Part shown: positions 1,441 through 64,000 of the stretch, in pieces | Numbering within the stretch: the stretch's first letter is position 1 | How the letters are laid out: every line of letters starts with the position of its first letter | NCBI GenBank assembly: GCA_903813345.2 | Contig: CAIIXF020000001.1 | Location: 7,936,001-8,000,000, forward strand | DNA length: 64,000 nt | Origin: Owenia fusiformis | Lineage: Eukaryota | Direction: 5' to 3' | Notes under the pieces: generated by a model | Databases searched by the model: none | What the model was told of the DNA's origin: nothing | The model's input: the letters and a program-made list of their open reading frames with translations, nothing else | Program-made: the position numbers and the translations under genes

Positions 1441-1919
1441 TGAAAAGAAACATAGAAAAATACAACCATTTTAAAACCGTTTAACCGTTCCGTTTAATGG
1501 AACAGCTCCCTACATTCTAAACAATGATCCAACACATGAAGACATGAAATGTTGAAAAACTTCAATAATGAAAAATATATTTTCCTTCTTAATTACATTG
1601 TGTTCATCATACTGTAACTGCTGTCACCCTACATACAAACATCATTTGACCAATAATTAGGCCTGCCATAATGGTATTCTGGTGATGTCCTGAAATCATT
1701 TACAATAATGAACATCCTCATTTTTACCAAGTAGTACTTTAAATCAGAATCCTAAGGGACAATTTGACATGTTTACTGAGCATTGCTTCTAACACTTTTC
1801 CATTCTGCTACTGAAGACTTTCTCTGCCTTGCAAATGAACTGATGTGATCTCTCACACTGTGATTCTACATACTCTCTATCCTTAGTGGCCACCTTAAAT
1901 GTGGGGGCAGATTATGATT

Positions 1920-2189
1920 AATTCAAATTATTGACAATAATTTCATTTATGGCAATGTGAGAGTCGGTTAAGGTTTAGGTATGAACAAGCCCTAAGAAGA
2001 CCATTCCCCGGTTATCCCAGGTAAATGTTTCTGGTAAGTTACACTGAACGAAACATCAAGCTTCAGATCTCGAGAGTACGAGATGAGACTTTAGACGAGA
2101 TATCGATAGGATTGTAGTTGGAGGGTTTTCTCCCTAGGTGCGTACAAAATCCATTAACATCAATGTAAGTTATACATTTCGATTCTTTT
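1920..2189 (+). repeat. Ngaro split direct repeat A1 (270 bp)
   Basis: Reads identical to 8209-8478 by eye (aattcaaattattgac...gattctttt). Confidence 0.95.
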
Positions 2190-3252
2190 TATCGACATTT
2201 ATCTCTTGTATATACATTTATCTATCGCTGAATCGTTTTGTGAAAATTGTATTGTAATATTTCACACAAAAAACGTCAGTTTAAAAAAGTTCAAAAAAAT
2301 TTCAAACACGTTTTATCTTTTGTCTTTATGACTTTGTAGTTTTATGTTTGAAGTATTCAATTGATATCTCGTACGTATGGTTTAAAACTTGAATTTATAC
2401 AAAAGAATTAATTTATTGATGAATATGGACACGTCACATTTTACTCGAGTCTCTACCTTACAGCTAGATGTAACTTCATCTATTTCGTATGTACTCGTAT
2501 TTCGTATGTAAAAATTGCTACACGCACCTAGAAATCATTTTATATTAATTATATTTAGGATGAAGCGTTGCTTGTCTGGTTTTAGATATTTCAAAATTTC
2601 TTTTCGGAGTTTGACACATGGTTAAATTTTCTCGCTGTAGCTAAAAATGGCTTCCGGTTCCAGACGTCAATAATGTAGGAAACTTTGAAATTATTCTCGC
2701 TTAAAGAAATCAAATATAACAATAGATTCAGACGGAGATGTGTGCTGATGTTTCTCAAATCTATACATAAAGATATATTTCATATTATTATGCCGTATTT
2801 CCTGTGTGTGTGACACATTGATTTACAATATTTACAACACCAAGGCAGCTAATCTTTCTACTCAAAGCCGGCATATAGAGAAGGTTTGGACCTAAGTAAG
2901 TCACATACATGTCCTCAAGTTACGTTCAATAGACTCCATCCAATCTAATAATAGATATTTCATTTATTTACGAGTGTAAGTAACCTTGTAGGCTATTAAA
3001 TAAATATTTCTATTCTATTTTATTATCCCATTCCAGAGATTTCTGGTTGTTATTGGGATTATTCATAGTACCATTAAGGTACAGATATCATTTTATTATT
3101 TGATATATATTTATCTCTTGAGAGAGCTATAATTATTCCTTTTCTTCTATATTTCTGACACCTTATTGCACATAATAAACTTTACTCTGAGGATAAGACA
3201 ATAGTCATTATTATCCTTACCTTTCTTCTCCCATTATACAAGACAATTAGAG

Positions 3253-3850
3253 ATGCCTAATGTTATTAGGGTCAGCATTATAGGCCACAGTTTTGTTCGG
3301 AAAATAGAAGAATCTAACCATTTTGACTTTAAATTAAAGGAAGACATAGTTAACTATAATACCATCATTGTATATACAATTAAACAATTTCAGATGATGT
3401 AAAATATAAAAATCCCTATCCAGATATGGCTATATTACAGCTAGGATAAAATGATCTGGTTCATAGATCATCTACCTTTGTTGCAAAAAATCTCATCACT
3501 TTGGCTGAACAATATTTAGATATACATCCTTCATTAAAAGCCTTTTATATTGGAGAACTATTTCAACGCTCATTGCATCCTTTCAAATCCTCGATCAATA
3601 CTGCTTCAGAAGGCATTCAATATAATTCAATATTTTATCTACCAATTTCAAATTGTTAAATGATATTCATCATCATAAGGGCAATAGACTTTTGTTCCTA
3701 CATCACCCACATACCACCCAATATAGAATCAATGGTCAAATTTGATAGATGACTCCTACGATCCCATACATCTCAATGCAAAGGGGAAAAGCGTTTCGTC
3801 AAGTCCTGGAAAGGCGCAGTCCTGAGATTTCTTGATTACATTTATTAGGT
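3253..3850 (+). pseudogene. Decayed SGNH/GDSL-type hydrolase carried by the Ngaro element
   Basis: Manual translation across frameshifts: MPNVIRVSIIGHSFVRK (block I, GHS), PDMAILQLG*NDL (block III), DPIHLNAKG from 3760 (block V, DxxH); in-frame stops and frameshifts present. Confidence 0.75.
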
Positions 3851-4009
3851 AATAATAATTAGACTTAACATTAGAAGAGACGGCTACTCTTCTCTAACCA
3901 AACATAAGCCAGAGAGTCGTTAACTTTTCACAATAGTTTATTCACTTAGTTATCCTTCTTAAGTACTATACTTATAATAGGAAATTTAGTTTCCTGTTTA
4001 CTTATATTT

Positions 4010-4587
4010 TATCATATTTATATTATGATAAATATATATTATTTTGTATATCATCTGCATTTATTCATGCAGTGTATACTATACCTTTAGACATGATATG
4101 TTATCATATTTATATTATGATAAAATTCATATTATTTTATATTTCATATTCATGCATTGTATGCTTTACCTTTATTCTTAAAGGTTATCATATTTATATT
4201 ATGATAATTCATATTACATTTATATCATATGCATTTATTCATGCATTGTATACTTTACCTTTATTCTTAAAGGTTATCATATTTATATTATGATAATTCA
4301 TTTTTTATATTTCATATGCATTTATTTATGCAGTGTATTCTAAATCATATTTATTATGATTAGCCTTATGGGCATCATATTTATATTATGATAATTCATA
4401 ATCTTTATATATAATATGCATTTATTTATGCAGTGTATTCTAAATCATATTTATTATGATTAGCCTTATGGGCATCATTTTTATATTATGATAATTCATA
4501 ATCTTTATATATCATATGCATTTATTTATGCAGTGTATTCTAAATCATATTTATTATGATTAGCCTTATGGGCATCATATTTATATA
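4010..4587. repeat. AT-rich tandem repeat (~80-bp units followed by three 100-bp units) inside the Ngaro element
   Basis: tagccttatgggcatc recurs at 4361, 4461 and 4561; atcatatttatattatgata recurs throughout. Confidence 0.9.
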
Positions 4588-4687
4588 CATCTAACATGGA
4601 GCATGTGCTTCTATTTATATTTATCTAAATGTTTTTATGTCTTGAAGTTGCTTACCCTCTATATAACTACTAATTATTTCACTGCAA

Positions 4688-5430
4688 ATGTCTGAAACTG
4701 AAGGACCTAACCCAAGTATTACTATTGAAGAGTATCACACTTCTAATACCCTGACTGCAGCCAAGTCTATGCCCACTTTAATAAGGGGCAACTTTACAAC
4801 AACTTTTCCCTTATCCCCTTTCCCTTCTTATTCCACTACATCTTCCATTCCAACCCAACATTTCATTCTCTCTAAATAGACCCACAGCATCTATTACTCG
4901 CCCTATTCCATCTTTTGCATCAAGCGCTAATATCCAACCCTACCCTTCCATCCCTCCAGTCTCTACTAACCTTTCAGCTTTTCATAATTCCCAACCCGTC
5001 TCTACAGCTTATGGATTAATTCCCAACACAAATGCCATGCTACAAGGACAGGTGTCAGTAGCTTCAATAAATCCAATTCCCAGTTTTTAACATATTACAT
5101 TACATTATTTGTCCATATTTCAGATTTTGCGGATTTACTTTAATTCATTTCTATGATATTCTTATATTTTGGTATTCATGTATTGATTCATGATTGTATT
5201 GAAGACAAAAACAATGATTATGTCCTCTGTGAGATGTAATCTGACAATTCTTTTGAATCAAAACATTTGAATTTAAACCCTTCAAAGAAGGGAAAATCCT
5301 TTCATTTCCAGAATGGGTCCGAGCATTCAGTATATTTATTGCTGTCTATACCCAAAGATTTCATGATCAAACCCCTCACCTCTTGAAATATATATCCCCT
5401 TGTCCCTTTAACCACACCTGCCCAACTTGC
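4688..5430 (+). pseudogene. Decayed gag-like ORF1 of the Ngaro element
   Basis: ATG at 4688, P/S/T-rich N-terminus, then FPEWVRAFSIFIAVYTQRF..PHLLKY (~5305-5395) and CPFNHTCPTC; broken by stops and an internal insertion. Confidence 0.65.
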
Positions 5431-5534
5431 AAAATGTTACTCTCGCAACAACGGCAGGCAAGCCCAATTCCCCAACAAAAAGCGCTCAGGTACTGGAGAC
5501 TCCAAAAAACCCTTCGGTGAACTTATGTCAACAC

Positions 5535-6665
5535 AAGTTGTTACTCCAGTTAAACCTGAAAGACTCAGATATTGGCTTGAAGGCTATGAACATCAAGAAG
5601 AAACAGTTCATGGTTTCTAGTACGGATTTAAATTTCCTCACTCTGATTTGCCAGAACATTACAACATTACTCATGATAATTTGTCATCATATCTAAGAAC
5701 CCAGAAGCTCTCAAAAAATTAAACAAAGAGCTTGAAGCTGGTAGAATACTTGGACCTTTTGACCAGCCACCATTTGATATTATTTCACCCTTATTTCTCG
5801 TTCCTAAAAATCTCCAGGTTAATTCTGTGTTATTCACAACTTATCACATCCCAGAGGCCAACCCATAATGATACTATCCCAGACGAAACTTCTACAGTTA
5901 AATATGCAACCGTACAACAAGCCATAGATATTATAAAACATTTAGGAAAAGGTTGCTTCTTGTGTATGACTATTAGAAGCTTGTTTGCTCATGGACATGG
6001 CAAAACAATCATTGCCACTTTATGTAACATAAACCCCTTTACCATTAAGCCAAAACCAAAGAAAGTCTCAAAGAGAACTTTTATCTGCTATAGGATTCCT
6101 TAGCTACTGTTGTTGTGTGATTCCTTTCGGTAGATCATTTATTTCATTATTTATTCATCTATCTAAAAATGAAGGAGCTACATTATAAAATCTTAATCAA
6201 CACTCCATCTATGCAGGATTTATTAATGTGGAAATAGTTTCTAATTCCCTTTAATGGGAAATCTATTTTCCTTACAGAAGAACAAGAGAACAATTGCATC
6301 TTTTACCGATGCTTCTACTACGATAGGCTTTGGAGCCGTTTGCAATAATCTTTGGTTTAAAGGGGAATCAAGGCCATTAAAAGGCCATCAGAATGGAAAG
6401 AATTGGACATCAATATTCTTGAATTATATCCTATTGTTACTGCTATACTTACATAGGCAAAACTTATGTCTGGACACACAGTTATCCTGCATTCTGACAA
6501 TGAAGCAGTAGTGAACATACCGAATTAAATTTTCTACCAGCAATCAAACGTCCATGCAACTCTTACTTCCTATATATTAAAATGTCTCTTAAACAATATC
6601 ATGTTCAAAGTGAACACATTGCTGGTATTCTTAATTCTGCTGCTGACGCTTTATCTAGAAACAAT
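5535..6665 (+). pseudogene. Decayed reverse transcriptase/RNase H of the Ngaro element (catalytic RT core apparently deleted)
   Basis: Motifs in shifting frames: TPVKPERLRYWLEGY, ELEAGRILGPFDQPP, NDTIPDETSTVKYATVQQAI; RNase H FTDASTTIGFGA, INILELYPIV, HSDNEAVV, HIAGILNSAADALSR. No YLDD found. Confidence 0.85.
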
Positions 6666-6667
6666 TT

Positions 6668-7533
6668 ATGTTACTTTTTATCTTTTAGAAGCACTTCAAG
6701 CTGCCCAAGCCCCGTCTACCAGAAAGTCATATGATTTATTAGTACAGTTCAACTCCCAGACAGGTATAGGTGAATTTCCTCTAACCCCAGCCTCTGCTAG
6801 CCTTTTTGCAGCACATCTTCGTTTAAAGAATTATCCCCCTAATTCATTCAAGTCAGTTCTGTCTGGTTTATCATTTTTATCATATTTTCACAATTAACAA
6901 TTTCAAGGATCCCACTACTTCTTATGTAGTCTCTCAAATAGTTTCTGGTTTTTGTAAACAAAATCCTAGCATAGACACTAGATTGCCAATCAACACAGCC
7001 TTGTTAGAACAAATGGTTTCTAAAACTTCTGAAGTAGATTTTGACCCTTTTGCTCAAGTCTTGTACAGAGCTATGTTATCTACAGCCTTTTTGGCTTACT
7101 AAGAAGTAGTGAGTTGACAAGTACTTCCGCAGGACACAACTTACAGTTAGAAAGTATTAAATTCTCTCCCGATGAAGCCTTTTTCATTATTACTTTTTCA
7201 CATTTTAAACATAGCTCATCTCCTGCTACGATATCAATTAATTCTCAATTACCATCTTGTTGTCCAGTATTACATATGAAGTTGTACCTGAACATAAGGT
7301 CCTTTAAATCAGGTCCTCTTTTCATTTATAGAGATGCTCCAGTGAATACTTCTGTATTTAACAATTTTCTTCACAAACTCTTTGTTCAATGTCAGGTAGA
7401 TCCTACCTTCTATAAATGCCACAGTTTGCGGATAGGCGGAGCTACATGGGCCACAAATCTTGGACTTGATGACTATACTATCAAAAGATTGGGATATGAC
7501 ATACATACATACATTAAAAAATATATTAGGTAG
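6668..7533 (+). pseudogene. Decayed tyrosine recombinase (YR) of the Ngaro element
   Basis: AQAPSTRKSY...DPT...DTRLPI...STAF/GLLRSSEL (catalytic R, 1-nt frameshift), HFKHS, CPV, YKCHSLRIGGATWA (HxxR), terminal KYIR; ORF-track pieces 6601-6897 and 7114-7533. Confidence 0.9.
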
Positions 7534-7544
7534 ACATTTATAAA

Positions 7545-7670
7545 CTCAGACTGGTGTCGAGTATGCAATTTTCATTAAAGCCCCAAAGTTGCTCAGACAG
7601 GTGTCGAGTATTCAATTTTCATGTAAACCCCAAAGTCGGCTCAAACAGGTGTCGAGCATGCAAATTTCAA
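7545..7670. repeat. Three ~48-bp tandem copies downstream of YR
   Basis: ctcagactggtgtcgagtatgcaattttc-like unit starting at ~7545, ~7592 and ~7640. Confidence 0.8.
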
Positions 7671-7976
7671 GTAGCTACTGTTTTTTCTTCATGATGTACT
7701 AGAAATTTAATTGAGATAAACCCGCACTTTCTGAATTCAAAAATTTTCATTCAATTCTAATTCCTTTATCTTACCTGAGATTGACAGCATATTACATTAC
7801 ATTACATTAATTTGTCCATCAATATTTCAGAATTTGCGGATTTACTTTAGTTCATTTCTATGATGTTCTTATAATTTGGTATTCATGTATTGATTTGTGT
7901 GTATCAATAAATGATTTAACTACTTTCTAATTAATCTTCTTTTCTTTTGGGCTCTCGCGAGAGATCGCGCATGGCC

Positions 7977-8211
7977 TTATTTTCGCCCAAGAAGATGAGT
8001 TGGAGATGGTATTATAATATATCCAATTGAGCTAATTAACAGTTATGTCAAATTGTAAACTCTTGTAGCTAATTAACTTAAATTAGCCATTATTTTCCAA
8101 GGTATTGTGTTTTGTGTTAATTGGCTCAATATTTATTTATATTAATTTTATATTAATAATTTTACATGTACGACTCTCACGGCCATATCTATACTCTACA
8201 TGAACATAAAT
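7977..8211 (+). repeat. Ngaro split direct repeat B1 (235 bp)
   Basis: Reads identical to 8519-8753; overlaps A2 by AAT. Confidence 0.95.
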
Positions 8212-8478
8212 TCAAATTATTGACAATAATTTCATTTATGGCAATGTGAGAGTCGGTTAAGGTTTAGGTATGAACAAGCCCTAAGAAGACCATTCCCCGG
8301 TTATCCCAGGTAAATGTTTCTGGTAAGTTACACTGAACGAAACATCAAGCTTCAGATCTCGAGAGTACGAGATGAGACTTTAGACGAGATATCGATAGGA
8401 TTGTAGTTGGAGGGTTTTCTCCCTAGGTGCGTACAAAATCCATTAACATCAATGTAAGTTATACATTTCGATTCTTTT
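8209..8478 (+). repeat. Ngaro split direct repeat A2
   Basis: Copy of 1920-2189. Confidence 0.95.
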
Positions 8479-8518
8479 CCCTCACCTCCTTCCCCAGCTT
8501 ACACCACCAGTTGGAGAT

Positions 8519-8753
8519 TTATTTTCGCCCAAGAAGATGAGTTGGAGATGGTATTATAATATATCCAATTGAGCTAATTAACAGTTATGTCAAATTGTAA
8601 ACTCTTGTAGCTAATTAACTTAAATTAGCCATTATTTTCCAAGGTATTGTGTTTTGTGTTAATTGGCTCAATATTTATTTATATTAATTTTATATTAATA
8701 ATTTTACATGTACGACTCTCACGGCCATATCTATACTCTACATGAACATAAAT
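8519..8753 (+). repeat. Ngaro split direct repeat B2 (element 3' end)
   Basis: Copy of 7977-8211. Confidence 0.95.
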
Positions 8754-9374
8754 CATATTTTTGTAATTTCCTATGTAGCCTCAATGCAATCCACTACCCA
8801 CTAATTACCTCCTTTAGGAACACATTTCAAAAGTTCATTGGCAGTTAGACTAATTAAATATGGAAGGGGGGGGGGGGGGGTTCTACAATGGGATAATCTT
8901 CATCCACTCATGCCCTAATAGAGGTTTAAAGGTATTGAATGGAGAACTGGAATTTTGGGAGTGATTTAGGATTCAACCTTAAAGCGCTCTTCATAATATG
9001 CTGAATACATGTGATGCATTATATACTATATTATGTATTATTAAGGATATTTAAAATTTAATATATATGTTAAACGTTCCATCCCTTAAATTTAGGACAT
9101 TTCACCAAAAGGTGCCTAATGATATTCATTTGTAAATATCAAAAAGTCAAGGTATTTAAAAATGTGATCTAACACCTTAATATATTCACCCTGGTTTACA
9201 GAGCGGACACATATTTCAACTTTTATTTTGTCTTTCTCACAATTTCTTAAAATCCATAGGGTGATTTATTTTTTTCCTATAATTCAATTTTTCTTATTTT
9301 ATTATACTGTACAATTTACATATAAAACCCATATAAATGATCAGTCATGACCAGCAAATCTGGAATGAAGACTG

Positions 9375-9743
9375 TGTAAAGACCCTCGATAGTAAGTTGC
9401 TACTACAGTTTCAGCTCAGGGGTACACTACAGCCCCCGGACAGGCGTGCCCTCAGGTTGTTACAGCTGTGTCAGAAGTGGGATTGCCCTTGTGAATCAGT
9501 TGCAGCAGGACATCACCTTTTTGGGGGTAGGGGTGGTGTAATGACCCTCATTAGGAAGTCGCTACTACAGTCACAGCTGTAGCGGCTAGTCCTTACAGCT
9601 CAGGGGTAGAGCGTCTGTCTTGTAAGCCGAGGGTCCTGGGTTCGATTCCTTGGGGCACTGAATTTAGCACACTCCCTTTCATGTCTAGTATCTGGCTCGT
9701 TACACCACAGCTACTATGATGGGCGTGCCCTCAGGTTGTTACA
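9375..9743 (+). mobile_element. Miniature LTR retroelement (TRIM) with tRNA-containing LTR, Helenus-like, copy 1
   Basis: Internally deleted LTR 9375-9464 (TGTAA..TTACA), degenerate PBS gtgtcagaagtgggat, PPT gggggtaggggtgg, LTR 9537-9743; homologous to 18783-19238. Confidence 0.85.
9589..9657 (+). pseudogene. tRNA-derived (Thr-TGT-like) Pol III cassette inside the LTR
   Basis: A box cagctcaggggtagagc, anticodon loop ctTGTaa (TGT at 9621-9623), B box ggttcgattcc (9639-9649); acceptor and T stems imperfect. Confidence 0.75.
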
Positions 9744-14229: not shown

Positions 14230-16214
14230 ACAAGAACACAAATGTGTACAAAATGTCCCCACCTATTGGTGATCCCGTCAAATGGTTATCCTAAAAATGA
14301 GTAGACAAGACTTTACCGACACAATTTGAGGACGGAAAATCCAAAATGGCCACCTTAAAATTTACCCAGAATGCCAAAGAATTAGTCAGTTCTAGATTTT
14401 CACACTAAGAACCACCCCTAAAAATTTGAAATTGATCCGTCACACAGTTAACCAGAAAACATGTAAACAAGACTTCAAAATCCAAAATGGCTGCCTTGAC
14501 ATTTATCCAGAATGCCAAAAAACTAATCTGTTCTAGATTTTCATACTAAGAATCATCCCTGAAAATTTAAAATTGATCCACCAAACGGTTCACCTGAAAA
14601 CGCGTAGACAAGACTTTACGGGCAAGATTTTAAGACAGAAAATCCAAAATGGCTGCCTTTACATTTATCCAGAATGCAAAAAAACTAATCAGATCTAGAT
14701 TTTCATACTAAGAATCATCCCTGAAAATTTGAAATTGATCTACCAAACAGTTCACCTGGAAATGCGTAGACAAGACTTTACAGACAAGATTTTAGGACAG
14801 AAAATCCAAAATGGCTGCCTTGACATTTACCCAGAATGCCAAAAAACTAATCAGAACTAGATTTTCATACTAAAAATCATCCCTGAAAATTTGAAATTGA
14901 TCAACCAAACGGTTCACGTAAAAACATGTAGACAAGTCTTTACGGGCAAGATTTTAAGACGGAAAATCCAAAATGGCTGCCTTGACATTTATCCAGAATG
15001 CCAAAAAACTAATCAGATCTAGATTTTCATACTAAGTATCATCCCTGAAAATTTAAAATTGATCTACCAAACGGTTCACCTAAAAACGCGTAGACAAGAC
15101 TTTACAGGCAAGATCTTAAGATGGAAAATCCAAAATGGCTGCCTTGACATTTATCCAGAAAGCCAAAAAACTAATCAGATCTAGATTTTCATACTAATAA
15201 TCATCCCTAAAACTTTGAAATTGATCTACAGAACGGTTCACCTGGAAATGCATAGACAAGACTTTACAGACAAGATTTTAGGACAGAAAATCCAAAATGG
15301 CTGCCTTGACATTTACCCAGAATGCCAAAAAACTAATCAGTTCTACATTTTCATACTAAGAATCATCTCTAAAAATTTGAAATTGATCTACCAAACGGTT
15401 CACCTGAAAACGCGTAGACAAGACTTTACAGACAAGATTTTAGGACGGAAAATCCAAAATGGCTGCCTTTACATTTACCCAGAATGCCAAAAAACGAATC
15501 AGATCTAGATTTTTATACTAAGAATCATCCCTGAAAATTTGAAATTGATCCACCAAATGGTTCACCTGAAAACACCTGAAAACACGTAGACAAGACTTCA
15601 CAGACAAGATTTTAGGACGGAAAAATCCAAAATGGCCGACAATAAAAAAGTGATTATGTGTTTTTGCTGATTTCTTCTTACAAAATTATCACATATAACT
15701 ACTGTTAACAATAACATAGGCTTTTATAACAAAGTACATCTGAAATTATTTATAAAGCTACTAAATAGTTAAAGTATGAAAACTCAAAAACACCATTCAA
15801 TATGATACAAAGTATTATCGTGCGCTAACTTTTCTAAAGACATTCAAAATGGCTGACATGACTGAGCTAACAGGTCCAAAACCTAATCAGATCTAGAATG
15901 AAGTGAGCTGAACAAGATGTTAAAGTTTTAAAAGCAACTGTGAAGCCGTTTTTCTTAAAGTTTGCAGACAAGGATTTTAGCATTTAACTTCAAAATGGCC
16001 GACAGGAAGTAGGTATCGAGTTAAGATTTTTTCATCCACATCTGTATGCACTCATAAGTTATCCCTGAAAATTTGAAGGTGATATCTGTAGCGGTTTTGG
16101 AGAAAACTCTCGGACGTACGGACGGACAGATGGACGGACGGACGTACGGGCGGACAGACAGACGGACGCGCCTAGGCCGACAATATGGCCCCACACTATG
16201 TGGTGGGGACATAA
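14230..16214 (+). mobile_element. Helentron-associated (HINE-like) element, family 1, with internal 162-bp tandem array
   Basis: Subterminal IR atgtccccacc (14253) / ggtggggacat (16202); GGAC/AGAC microsatellite at ~16112-16167; 3' hairpin ccccacactatgtggtgggg; second copy at 36643-38285. Confidence 0.85.
14290..15640. repeat. ~8 tandem copies of a 162-bp satellite monomer
   Basis: aaaatccaaaatggc at 14639, 14801, 14963, 15125, 15287 and 15449 (period 162). Confidence 0.95.
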
Positions 16215-16880: not shown

Positions 16881-18782
16881 CTTTTTTCTTGTATATTTAC
16901 TCTCCTGGCTTACCCTTATTACTTTTATGTTAGTGGATTTATTGTCAAATATCCAATGGTTTTATTTAGTCAAACAAATATTTGGTCATCTCAATACATA
17001 TTATTTTATTCTATTCATACCTGATCCTATAGTTGTATTCAAAATGTGCTTTGCTCAAATGATTCTTTAAATATGAATGGACATGTGGCAAAATGGGTAA
17101 GACAGGTATTTTACAATATATGGCAAGAAACGTCCAAAGCAAAGCAAAACAAAACCCCAATATCTCAAACAATGATGCAATTGCAAGAGTTTCATGTTTT
17201 TCTTAATAACACTTAATTATTTTGATAGAGCAATATCTAAGCAGTCATATTGCCATGTGGTTATATTCTATAAAATGTCCTTAAGATGATGGCCCCGAGC
17301 CATTCCTCATTTTGAGCTATATTACCCACTCCTTAAAATAATATGCAGATCACAGAATGCTGTTTGTTTGCATCTCTCATACAAAAAGAAATGCAAACTT
17401 CCCCACCCATGGGATATACTTCTAAAGCTACAATCAGAGATATAAAGTTGACAAAAACAGAATCAACATTAATATATTAGCCTTAACATTAATGCTTCTT
17501 AAATGACTTCTTAAATAAAATCTGGTTTGTTCTTCAACTCAAACAGTGATGGTAGTAATAGGCATTGTTTCTTTATGTGTTCTTCATTGTTTTTGCTTAA
17601 TTTGACCCAGTACAGTATCAGATCATTTGTCTACAATTATAGATGTCAGTCTTTCCAGAAACGTTATGGGGAGGATCAATAAATAAGCTATCAACACAAA
17701 ATTATGTTATTTAAGATGAATGCAACCAATAGGTGGCTTAACAATCATGGAAAGTATAGTAAAGTATAATCTGTTGATCAATTTTGTCTTGTTTTTTTTC
17801 TCTCAATGGCTCATTGTTTATATTCTTATATGAAGCATGAGTGACATACAGTGAAAGACCAAGGGAATCACAGGAAAAAACATTAAAATATCCCAAAGTA
17901 TGATTGAATACGCCAGCAAACAAAGCCATACACATTCCATAAGTCATGGGACATTTCATATACTAAATATAGTAAAGCAAACTCATTACAACACATGTGA
18001 AACAATAAATTCATTTTTAATGAAAATGTTATTGTCATATAGACCACAATGTAATTAATGAGCTTTACTAATGTGAAAAGGTAATTTAAATGATATATAC
18101 ATTTTTGTCAATATTTATATATCATCTTTAATTCTGTTTTTAAAAGAATGAAATTGGTCATTTAACAACAATCTTTAATGTTTAGAGTATCTTCTTCTTT
18201 TAAATATTCCTCAATATTTTTTTGTACTTTACAAAGTTTTTCAATGACTTCAAAATGAATAAAATAATACATTGTCTTATAGTTTTGAATTATGTGTTCT
18301 GAATGAAAATGGGCAGAGGGAAATACTGTTTATCTATATGTGAAATCATTGTTTAGGATGTAAGGATTTGTTTTGTTAATAGTCAGATGACATCTAATCT
18401 TCCTCTTTAAACTATTTATAATAGTTTTTTATCTTTCACCTTTTTGCTCATAAATATGGAATATTAGATTTGTCAGGTCAGAATTCAAGTTTGGGATGAA
18501 GACAACATTTATTTGGAATCGTTAAAGCAATTTATTTTCTTGGCAAATCATAAACACATATTTAATCTACAAATCAACATTTTTAGAGAAAAAATATTTA
18601 TATTTAAGTTTAGAAATTTGCTGTTGTTTAAAATGGGGTAGTTTAAAAAAATTGCATTTTCAAAACACCCCGATTCAAAGGATCTAGTGCTCCCTCCATT
18701 ATGATCTCCCCATGAACAAAAATAAATTCATCTGATTTTTCAAAATAAATATACTGCTTTTATTATTACATTTATATGTACT

Positions 18783-19238
18783 TGTAATGACCTTCGATAG
18801 CAAGTCGCTACTACAGTCTCAGCTGTAGTGGCTAGCCTTTATGGCTCAGGGGTAGAGTGTCTGACTCAAGAGCGGGAGGTCCTGGGTTTAGCACATTCTC
18901 TTTCTAGTCTAGTATCTGACTCGGTACACTACAGCTCCATGACGAGCGTGCCCAAGGGTCGTTACATTGGTGTCAGAAGTGGGATTGCCCTTGTGAATCA
19001 GTTACGACGGGACGTCGTCTTCTAGGGGGGGATGGTGTAATGACCTTCGATAGCAAGTCGCTACTACAGTCTCAGCTGTAGTGGCTAGCCTTTATGGCTC
19101 AGGGGTAGAGCATCTGACTCGAGAGCGTGAGGTCCTGGGTTCGATATGGGGCATTGAATGTAGCACATTCTCCTTCGAGTCTAGTATCTAGCTAGGTACA
19201 CTACAGCTCCCCCACGAGCGTGCCCAAGGGTTGTTACA
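18783..19238 (+). mobile_element. Miniature LTR retroelement (TRIM) with tRNA-containing LTRs, Helenus-like, copy 2 (complete)
   Basis: TSD TACT on both sides; LTR1 18783-18966 and LTR2 19036-19238 (TGTAA...TTACA); PBS tggtgtcagaagtgggat 18968-18985; PPT agggggggatgg 19024-19035; 69-bp internal region. Confidence 0.92.
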
Positions 19239-19797
19239 TACTCGAGTATCTTGTTGACTATATTCAGCACTGTATTGATGAATGGACCATTTATTAGGAC
19301 CAATATTCAATCATAAAGCGTACAGGTGTAGAGATGCCAAACCAGGAAGTATTTTTGTGTCTGTCAAAATCCATTTGCATCCAACACATCCATACATCTT
19401 ATCCAAACATGTTATTAAGTAATTCTGTCAGAAAAAAATAATAAAAAATGTATAATCTTTTAATTTGAAGTACGATGTCTGATGTGATATACCATTTGTG
19501 TCATATTGTGAAATTATTTAAGTCAATGTTAAGTCAATAGAACACATCCAATGTCAAGTCAATATCCTTGCTGAACTTAATGACCTCCACCTCAGCCCAT
19601 GTGGGTCCAAACGCTTAAATATTTTCCAAAGTATTATGGGGCTTTGTATTCTTTATGTTACACCTAAAAATGATTCATTTTGTTCATGGGGAAATCATAA
19701 TGGAAAGTGCACTAAACCCCTTTTAATGTAAAGCTGATCAAACAAACTAAACATCAGGTCATGAAGATGAATTAGTCCTCTATCCCATAACATAGCA

Positions 19798-36495: not shown

Positions 36496-37336
36496 CAGGG
36501 TGAGTCAAAAAAGGTAACCCAAACATCCAGTACGTCATAATTGACACAACTGAACCATATTCAATGTTCTTTCATTGGTCTATTTCTAACAGTCACAATT
36601 TTATGGCCATTTTACAAAACATGCTCAAAATCCCAAAACATAACAAGAACACAAATGTGTACAAAATGTCCCCACAAATGGGTGATCCCATTGAATGGTT
36701 ATCCTGAAAATAAGTAGACAAGACTTTACCGACACAATTTGAGGATGGAAAATCCAAAATGGCCACCTTAAAATTTACCCAGAATGCCCAAAAATTAGTT
36801 AGTTCTAGATTTTTATACTAAGAACCACCCCTGAAAATTTGAAATTCATCCATCAAACGGATAACCAGAAAACATGGAAACAAAACTTTACAGACAAGAT
36901 TTTAGAATGGAAAATCCAAAATGGCTGCCTTGACATTTACCCAGAATGTCAAAAAACTAATCAGTTCAAGATTTTAATACTAAGAATCATCCTTGAAAAT
37001 TTGAAATTGATCTACCAAACGATTCACCTGAAAACGTGTAGACAAGACTTTACAGACAAGATTTTAGGACGGAAAATCCAAAATGGCTGCCTTGACATTT
37101 ACCCAGAATGCCAAAAACTAATCAAATTTAGATTTTCATACTAAGAATCGTCCCTGAAAATTCAAAATTGATCTACCAAACGGTTCACCTAAAAACACGT
37201 AGACAAGACTTTACAGGCAAGATGATAAGCTTTTTTGATAAGGCGGGGACTAACACTTAAAGGTGACATAAGCCCATATTCTGTGAATTGTCCCCAGGTC
37301 TGTGCACTTCGTAGTTACCTTTTTTGGCTCACCCTG
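36496..37336. mobile_element. Tc1/mariner-type TIR pair (MITE) interleaved with a HINE-like copy
   Basis: ta-cagggtgagtcaaaaaaggtaac versus gttacctttttttggctcaccctg; 37226-37315 also matches 42062-42187. Confidence 0.65.
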
Positions 37337-48761: not shown

Positions 48762-49358
48762 ATGCCAGAGCAGAGCAATGATTACAGGGTTGTTGTCTTT
48801 GGAGCTGGAGGTGTCGGGAAAAGCTCACTTGTGTTACGGTTTGTCCGTGGCACGTTTAAGGAAAGCTACATTCCAACAATTGAAGACACATACAGGCAAG
48901 TGATCAGTTGCAATAAGCAGGTGTGTACGCTGCAGATCACAGACACAACAGGGTCCCATCAATTCCCTGCAATGCAAAGACTCTCCATCTCTAAGGGGCA
49001 TGCCTTCATTCTTGTCTACTCAGTCATCTCCAAGCAGTCAATTGCAGAGCTAAGTCCCATATGGCGTGAAATATGTGAAATCAAAGGTGATACATCACAA
49101 ATTCCCATTATGCTTGTTGGTAATAAATCGGATGAGTTATCACGCGAAGTATCAACAGCGTTAGGTATGGAGTTAGCCAAAAAGTGGGGATGTGGGTTCT
49201 TGGAAACCTCTGCTAAAACTAATCATAATGTAAAAGAACTGTTCCAAGAACTGCTACAGATGGAGAAAAGACGGACAATGAGTCTTCAGTTGGAAACAAA
49301 GAAATCAAAATCCCAAAAAAGGAAAGAGAAGTTAAAGGGTAAATGTTCCCTGATGTAA
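48762..49358 (+). CDS. DIRAS: GTP-binding protein Di-Ras (DIRAS1/2-like), 198 aa, single coding exon
   Basis: [21 protein letters not shown], effector [40 protein letters not shown], basic tail and CAAX box CSLM. Confidence 0.97.
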
Positions 49359-63703: not shown

Positions 63704-64000
63704 ATGCGCCCTGTAAAAGATAATAGGGACTACAGAATGGCTGTCTTTGGAGCAAGTAACGTTGGCAAAAGTTCGCTTCTTCTTCGCTTTATTGAAGGCA
63801 GATTCCGGGAAACGTACATTCCAACGATCGAAGACGTGTATCGTAAAACAATTTGCTGCAATGAAGGAGGTTGCTCAATGTTAATAACAGATACAACAGG
63901 CGCGTATCAATTTCCTGCTATGCAAAGACTCTGGATGACAAAAGGACATGCCTTCATATTTGTTTTCTCCGTCATTAGAAAACAATCATTAGAAGAGCTT
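63704..64000 (+). CDS. Divergent Di-Ras-like GTPase paralog, partial (runs off the window end)
   Basis: Open frame [99 protein letters not shown]; splice acceptor tttcctttggcAG at 63670-63671. Confidence 0.92.

Follow-up and report, generated by a model that had tools for sequence, protein, structure and literature searches.

The 64,000-nucleotide stretch of the Owenia fusiformis genome analyzed here (assembly GCA_903813345.2, contig CAIIXF020000001.1, positions 7,936,001 to 8,000,000 of the forward strand; hereafter the window) possesses a small retroelement of 456 bp at positions 18783-19238, referred to as copy A. Two direct repeats, confirmed by sequence reading and by a repeat finder, form its long terminal repeats (LTRs). 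The 5' LTR (18783-18966, + strand) is 184 bp long while the 3' LTR (19036-19238, +) is 203 bp long. Both have TG...CA termini, and the LTR ends form a TGTAA/TTACA terminal inverted repeat. Global alignment of the two LTRs showed 171 identical residues in 184 aligned positions, with 8 transitions and 5 transversions (Kimura two-parameter distance 0.075), and blastn matched them to each other with an E value of ~1e-64. The only gap in the alignment, of 19 bp, falls in the 5' LTR and includes most of the B box. The element is flanked by identical TACT tetranucleotides (18779-18782 and 19239-19242), representing a 4-bp target site duplication (TSD). At the base composition of the window, the probability of a 4-bp flank match by chance is 0.006. 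The internal region (18967-19035, +) is non-coding and only 69 bp long. It contains an 18-nt primer-binding site (PBS), TGGTGTCAGAAGTGGGAT, situated at 18968-18985 (+), one base (T) past the 5' LTR, and a polypurine tract (PPT), AGGGGGGGATGG, at 19024-19035 (+), in which 11 of the 12 bases are purines and which adjoins the 3' LTR. The longest open frame of the element has 74 codons and spans the 5' LTR and the internal region; a protein database search with it gave one candidate and no match at E<=0.001. The element encodes nothing, and it has all the cis features needed for reverse transcription from a tRNA primer and for insertion by an integrase. The first-pass annotation of this DNA had described a miniature LTR retroelement carrying a tRNA-like RNA polymerase III (Pol III) promoter in its LTRs. 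All the parts it had listed, namely the TSD, the TG...CA LTRs, the PBS, the PPT, the 69-bp interior, the A box and the string ggttcgat, are present where it had placed them. Its structural reading, an LTR element of the size of a terminal-repeat retrotransposon in miniature (TRIM) with a tRNA-like LTR module, a tRNA-Leu PBS and a 4-bp TSD, proved right.

The PBS of copy A is the exact reverse complement (18/18) of the 3'-terminal 18 nt (CCA included) of tRNA-Leu-CAA-2-1 as its sequence is printed in PMC10359600. In the table of that paper the tRNA is taken from GtRNAdb with the species unstated, and it may not be the tRNA of the host. The same 18-mer is part of a 20-nt small RNA read of a thrips (PMC5042526), which hints that the 3' end of this tRNA-Leu may be conserved in protostomes. 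No tRNA gene was detected in the window by ARAGORN at default settings.

Search of the window with the element by blastn revealed a second copy, copy B, at 9375-9743 on the same strand with ~80% identity. Its 5' LTR (9375-9464, +) is reduced to 90 bp by internal deletions bounded by the short repeats CAGCT and GGTA, a sign of microhomology. Two of the deletions are near an A-box-like string, the 11-mer CAGCTCAGGGG, which is kept at 9412. The internal region (9465-9536, +) is identical to that of copy A at 56 of 69 positions, and the PBS-equivalent (9466-9483) at 16 of 18. The 3' LTR (9537-9743, +) is 207 bp long and shares 163 of 203 positions with the 3' LTR of copy A. A block of 34 nt, which spans most of the PBS along with the ~16-18 nt after it, is 100% identical between the copies (18970-19003 and 9468-9501) and may be a signal for packaging or for matching to the helper. 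Outside this block, the internal regions are about 60% identical. Copy B is older still than copy A, or chimeric, because its LTRs are only 72/90 identical to each other and it has no TSD. No solo LTR was found in the 64 kb by blastn, and a profile search with nhmmer found only the four known LTRs.

The Pol III promoter boxes of tRNA genes follow the pattern TRGCNNANNGG for the A box and GGTTCGANNCC for the B box. The 3' LTR of copy A contains a decayed tRNA-like module at 19086-19157 (+). An A-box-like sequence, TGGCTCAGGGG, is situated in it at 19095-19105 (+) with 0 mismatches to the pattern; the A-box string quoted by the first-pass annotation occupies 19096-19111. A B-box-like sequence, GGTTCGATATG, follows at 19138-19148 (+) and agrees with the pattern at 9 of 11 positions, with ggttcgat at 19138-19145. 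The A-box-like TGGCTCAGGGG is also found in the 5' LTR at 18842-18852 (+). The best-preserved module lies in the 3' LTR of copy B (9587-9661, +), where it was recognised by Rfam, ARAGORN and motifs. The Rfam tRNA model (RF00005) matched 9597-9652 over model positions 9-63 of 71, scoring 30.1 bits where the gathering score is 29; the E value is 0.03 in a search of the whole window and 5e-5 in one of a 111-nt stretch. This is the only Rfam match at the gathering threshold in the window. ARAGORN at the 95% threshold made one call in the window, a tRNA-Thr(TGT) at 9587-9661, and 1 call in ten shuffled windows; three stems of the cloverleaf it predicted for copy B contain mismatches. At 9639 the same LTR possesses a perfect B box, GGTTCGATTCC. 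Counting both strands of the window, there are two instances of the combined pattern YRGCNNANNGG-N25-45-GGTTCGA, one in the 3' LTR of copy A and the other in that of copy B. The distance from A to B box is 43 nt in both, as in a tRNA. The LTRs of copy A align column by column to the module of copy B, and the tRNA origin of the copy A module follows from the recognition of the homologous LTR of copy B as tRNA-like. The LTR module is tRNA-derived, and its closest relation by ARAGORN on copy B is tRNA-Thr(UGU). Overall, three of the four LTRs in the window contain the tRNA-like part, and the fourth retains a remnant of it, the A-box-like 11-mer. The first-pass annotation had considered that a late insertion of a short interspersed nuclear element (SINE) would have left most LTR copies free of the module, and this is not the case. 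As it is common to the diverged LTR of copy B, the tRNA-like part is an ancestral component of the family LTR and not a late SINE insertion. Two weaker signals were rejected during these searches. ARAGORN calls on copy A at the 75% and 70% thresholds were on the minus strand only with changing identity and were treated as noise, and a mir-1270 match in the copy A region (20.4 bits against 90, E 0.21) was considered a chance match.

Residue conservation differs strongly along the two 3' LTRs. The terminus is identical at 20 of 24 positions, the A box and D arm at 15 of 17, the anticodon arm at 11 of 20, and the 3' end at 33 of 44, while the stretch of the B box is fully conserved (14/14) apart from a 3-nt gap. 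The conserved boxes together with the decayed anticodon arm are suggestive of selection for a Pol III promoter and not for a tRNA, in a sample of two copies. LTR columns 25-50 are also highly conserved (24/26) and form a hairpin with an 11-bp stem. This hairpin has the same sequence in the 5' LTR (18807-18832, +) and the 3' LTR (19060-19085, +) of copy A, where its predicted energy is -17 kcal/mol (z -4.2) and none of 200 shuffles folds as well. In the 3' LTR of copy B (9561-9586) one pair is broken. In every full LTR the hairpin is placed directly upstream of the tRNA-like module.

Mismatches between the two LTRs of copy A are also unevenly placed: the first 75 aligned positions contain none, and all 13 fall within the remaining 109 (hypergeometric P 8e-4). 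Among them are several CpG to TpG or CpA differences. This uneven divergence could be due to partial gene conversion or to decay driven by methylation.

The locus very probably represents a Helenus-type TRIM, with a tRNA-derived module in its LTRs, that is old and no longer active. Helenus (the TRIMp3 class; Kojima 2024, Biology 13:119, PMC10886601) represents TRIMs with tRNA-derived sequence in the LTRs, and the first-pass annotation had named the correct published class. The structural features of this class found here are LTRs with a short non-coding interior, a PBS and a PPT, a tRNA-derived LTR part, and a 4-bp TSD in one of the two copies. The tRNA-derived part was established through copy B, as copy A alone passes the motif test only. 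Judging from its LTR divergence of 7%, copy A is old. It is also dead and unable to act as a source copy, because its 5' LTR has lost the 19 bp which include the B box.

The mechanism proposed for the family, not for the dead copy A, follows the published model of the class. TFIIIC and Pol III would read the A and B boxes of the 5' LTR, with a start near LTR position ~51. The first ~50 bp of the LTR, hairpin included, would then be the equivalent of U3. The transcript would cross the terminator-free element and reach the 3' LTR or the flank. A Gypsy-type autonomous element would package the RNA in trans. For reverse transcription, tRNA-Leu(CAA) would serve as primer at the PBS, together with priming by the PPT. 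The integrase of the helper would insert the TG...CA-ended DNA, resulting in the 4-bp duplication. Pol III transcription and a Gypsy helper are thus what we infer for the family.

Several results weigh against identification of the locus as a Helenus-type TRIM or against its Pol III promoter. All statements on the family are made from only two copies, both from the 64-kb window. The TSD which the first-pass annotation had proposed to look for in further copies is exact in copy A (TACT/TACT) but missing in copy B (ACTG/GTTG), so that one of two copies shows it. Both boxes of the putative Pol III promoter it had assigned to the LTRs are present in the 3' LTR of copy A, but the 5' LTR has no B-box-like match at <=2 mismatches, since the 19-bp gap removes it. 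Detection of a tRNA, which it had suggested as a check on the LTRs, succeeded with Rfam and with ARAGORN at 95% for copy B and failed with both programs for copy A. On the + strand of copy A, ARAGORN found no tRNA down to the 70% threshold, and Rfam at E<=10 found none in copy A when 18500-19500 and 19070-19180 were scanned. Folding of the two tRNA-like RNAs was no better than that of shuffled sequences (z -0.74 and +0.54). Among the 30 open reading frames (ORFs) of at least 90 aa in the window, no reverse transcriptase, integrase or gag domain was found by Pfam. According to the text of PMC10886601, transcription by Pol III has been validated for no TRIM other than Cassandra. The internal region of copy B contains TTTTT at 9518. 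In the 456 bp of copy A, TTTT is absent from both strands, and only 31 of 1271 windows of 456 bp in the region are free of TTTT on the + strand. However, copy A is richer in GC than the region, and 13.6% of its composition-matched shuffles are also free of TTTT (P 0.14). The absence of TTTT in copy A is weak evidence.

Part of these results would also suit a TRIM transcribed by RNA polymerase II (Pol II), in whose LTR an absorbed fragment of a tRNA-SINE is a passenger with no promoter role. The decay of the tRNA-like part in copy A, the lack of a stable tRNA fold and an LTR without a T-run terminator are in agreement with such a passenger, and Pol III use in Helenus generally is without validation according to PMC10886601. 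On the other hand, a passenger is not expected to keep its A box and D arm (15/17) and B box (14/14) best and its anticodon arm (11/20) worst, a contrast seen in two copies only, nor to maintain the tRNA-like 43-nt box spacing in both 3' LTRs. We therefore regard a Pol II-transcribed element as unlikely, though it is the most serious of the alternatives.

Less probable still is an origin of the element by internal deletion from an autonomous LTR retrotransposon with the same tRNA-bearing LTRs. TRIMs can originate in this way (PMC10886601, legend of Figure 1), and the present comparison covers the 64-kb window only. However, the two copies are ~20% diverged and yet have a common short interior (56/69) with a 34-nt identical block over the PBS, which argues for propagation as a miniature element. 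No coding LTR element was found within the window, and a Pol III promoter is held unlikely in the LTRs of long autonomous elements (PMC10886601). A local tandem duplication of a tRNA-derived SINE plus spacer, with no LTR element involved, would account for direct repeats with a tRNA-like head, but it is hardly credible in the face of the TG...CA ends with TGTAA/TTACA terminal inverted repeats, the tRNA-Leu PBS (18/18) one base past the first repeat, the purine tract adjoining the second, the exact 4-bp TSD, and the recurrence of the LTR-internal-LTR layout at another locus.

The surroundings of the Helenus-type copies and the rest of the window were also analyzed. Copy A is bracketed by a 50-bp inverted repeat with 84% identity (18673-18721 and 19678-19727), and with such bracketing it may lie inside an element of ~600 bp bounded by terminal inverted repeats. 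No second copy of this unit was found in the window, and the 500-bp flanks of copies A and B gave no other match in the window except the 50-bp inverted repeat around copy A. A region at 1917-8770 shows split direct repeats, of which 1917-2189 corresponds to 8206-8478 (273 bp, 99.6%) and 7977-8233 to 8519-8770 (257 bp, 97%), and encloses broken ORFs at 4785-7533. This layout resembles that of DIRS/Ngaro-type elements, but none of the searches supports the name. Pfam found nothing in 14 ORFs of 3205-7530 at E<=1, and the idea of a tyrosine recombinase in the ORF at 7045-7530 was given up as a PDB search gave only short, non-significant matches to WD40 repeats. Tandem arrays with a unit of ~162 bp, a period determined from self-match offsets, are situated at 14230-15636 and 36643-37229. 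Their units are 80-88% identical within and between both arrays. An intact single-exon gene at 48762-49355 encodes a Di-Ras2 GTPase, which over its length is 100% identical to Di-Ras2 of Owenia fusiformis (next best match <=86%) and places the window in this annelid or a near-identical relative. Pfam showed Ras-family domains in this ORF only among the 30 ORFs of at least 90 aa. The stretch 63728-63999 at the end of the window has 68% DNA identity to the Di-Ras2 gene and is probably a paralogue of it cut by the window edge.

No effect of the dead copy A on neighbouring genes is evident. Its significance lies in the distribution of the class. Annelida would be the seventh animal phylum for tRNA-bearing TRIMs and the fourth phylum of lophotrochozoans, beside Mollusca, Brachiopoda and Nemertea. 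A wider range bears on the choice between many origins, as proposed in PMC10886601, and an ancient element. Elements of this kind also yield false tRNA gene calls and unclassified short repeats in genome annotation. The repeat annotation of Owenia was automated with RepeatModeler, RepeatMasker and LTR_finder (PMC9977687), and in the text available from that paper the word 'trim' occurs only for the trimming of reads or domains. Among the papers listed in a literature search, judged by titles and the openings of abstracts, no report of TRIMs in Owenia fusiformis was found; an entry in Repbase is possible. Among the papers listed for Helenus and for TRIMp3, only PMC10886601 dealt with the class.

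Published Helenus elements are 311-1263 bp long and possess a PBS and a PPT, and their TSDs are of 4 bp in animals and of 5 bp in fungi and a plant (PMC10886601). The element of the window resembles them in having A and B boxes in the tRNA-derived part of the LTR, a PBS, a PPT and a 4-bp TSD, and its 456 bp fall within the published range. It is also alike in that its tRNA-like part probably does not encode a working tRNA; for the class, the promoter rather than a working tRNA is described as the target of selection in PMC10886601. The same paper proposes that Helenus originated by insertion of a SINE2 into the LTR of a TRIM. It further reports that only Gypsy elements resemble the PBS regions of animal Helenus, and proposes Gypsy helpers for animals. 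In contrast to published Helenus, the host belongs to Annelida, which is outside the six animal phyla of Table 1 of PMC10886601, and 'annelida' occurs 0 times in the text of its supplement. The upstream hairpin is unmentioned in the examined sections of that paper.

Comparison with individual Helenus families was made by text search of the supplementary consensus file of PMC10886601 (99,764 characters) and by reading of passages by eye. Among 20 k-mers of 9-16 nt taken from the LTRs and the internal region outside the PBS, 17 are absent from the file, and the three which match are all in the tRNA-like part. The 12-mer AGCGGGAGGTCC, which comes from the 5' LTR of copy A, has a single match in the file, Helenus-1_NGe-LTR. 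GCGGGAGGTC has two matches, in Helenus-1_NGe and Helenus-2_TeGr, and GAGGTCCTGGGTTC has one, in the plant family Helenus-1_SMo. Given the absence of 17 of the 20 k-mers in this text search, none of the listed Helenus families is a close relative. The suggestion of the first-pass annotation that this may be a new family for the host is thus plausible, as Annelida lies outside the published range and most k-mers are absent, a judgement made by text search only. The element would represent a new family within a class already described, and Annelida had not been listed among the phyla of that class.

Five of the listed LTRs showed the same order of features as the window when read by eye: Helenus-1_NGe and Helenus-1_LiLo of nemerteans, Helenus-1_CGi and Helenus-1_CVi of oysters, and LTR1_LCh of coelacanth. 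The common order is a TGTA start, an inverted repeat CTACT.../...AGTGG, and CCTTTA-GCTCA opening the tRNA-like part. The start is TGTAAT in Helenus-1_NGe, Helenus-1_CVi and LTR1_LCh. The consensus file contains the motif CCTTTAGCTC 12 times. The inner stem of the hairpin is CAG/CTG in the window and AGC/GCT in the oysters, which is compensatory when compared by eye. In contrast, no k-mers are common to the window and these nemertean, oyster and coelacanth LTRs downstream of the tRNA-like module. The primers differ as well. The PBS of the window is TGGTGTCAGAAG, while the interiors of CGi, LiLo, NGe and LCh open with TGGCGCCCA, and the primers of the bivalve Helenus described in PMC10886601 are Lys, His, Ile, Pro, Glu or Ser, not Leu. 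As a speculative and rather doubtful extension, the layout TGTAAT/hairpin/CCTTTA-GCTCA might mark one very old Helenus lineage across annelids, nemerteans, oysters and coelacanth, in whose annelid branch primer and helper would have switched from tRNA-Lys to tRNA-Leu, and whose upstream hairpin, so far undescribed, would be functional.

A different kind of likeness is shown by Helenus-1_AcRu of sterlet, in which the first 19 nt of the interior (TT and the 18-nt PBS) agree exactly with the window. The PBS 18-mer occurs once in the consensus file, at the start of Helenus-1_AcRu-I. In Helenus-1_AcRu and Helenus-1_PolSpa (sturgeon and paddlefish) the identity ends with the PBS, and the LTRs have no k-mers in common with those of the window. 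This likeness looks like that of a shared primer tRNA and not of shared descent.

Among other systems, SINE2 elements resemble the element of the window in the tRNA-like head with A and B boxes. However, the LTR-PBS-PPT-LTR layout at both loci and the fixed 4-bp TSD set it apart from them, and SINEs are mobilised by non-LTR elements. Retrozymes, which carry a hammerhead ribozyme in their LTRs, were considered by a search for ribozymes, in which no ribozyme family was found at E<=10 in 18500-19500, nor at the gathering score in the window. The whole-window Rfam scan likewise gave no 5S match at the gathering threshold. Cassandra and Ajax follow the same principle as the element described here, a Pol III promoter of a small RNA gene placed within the LTR of a TRIM; their module is derived from 5S rRNA, whereas that of the window is derived from a tRNA.

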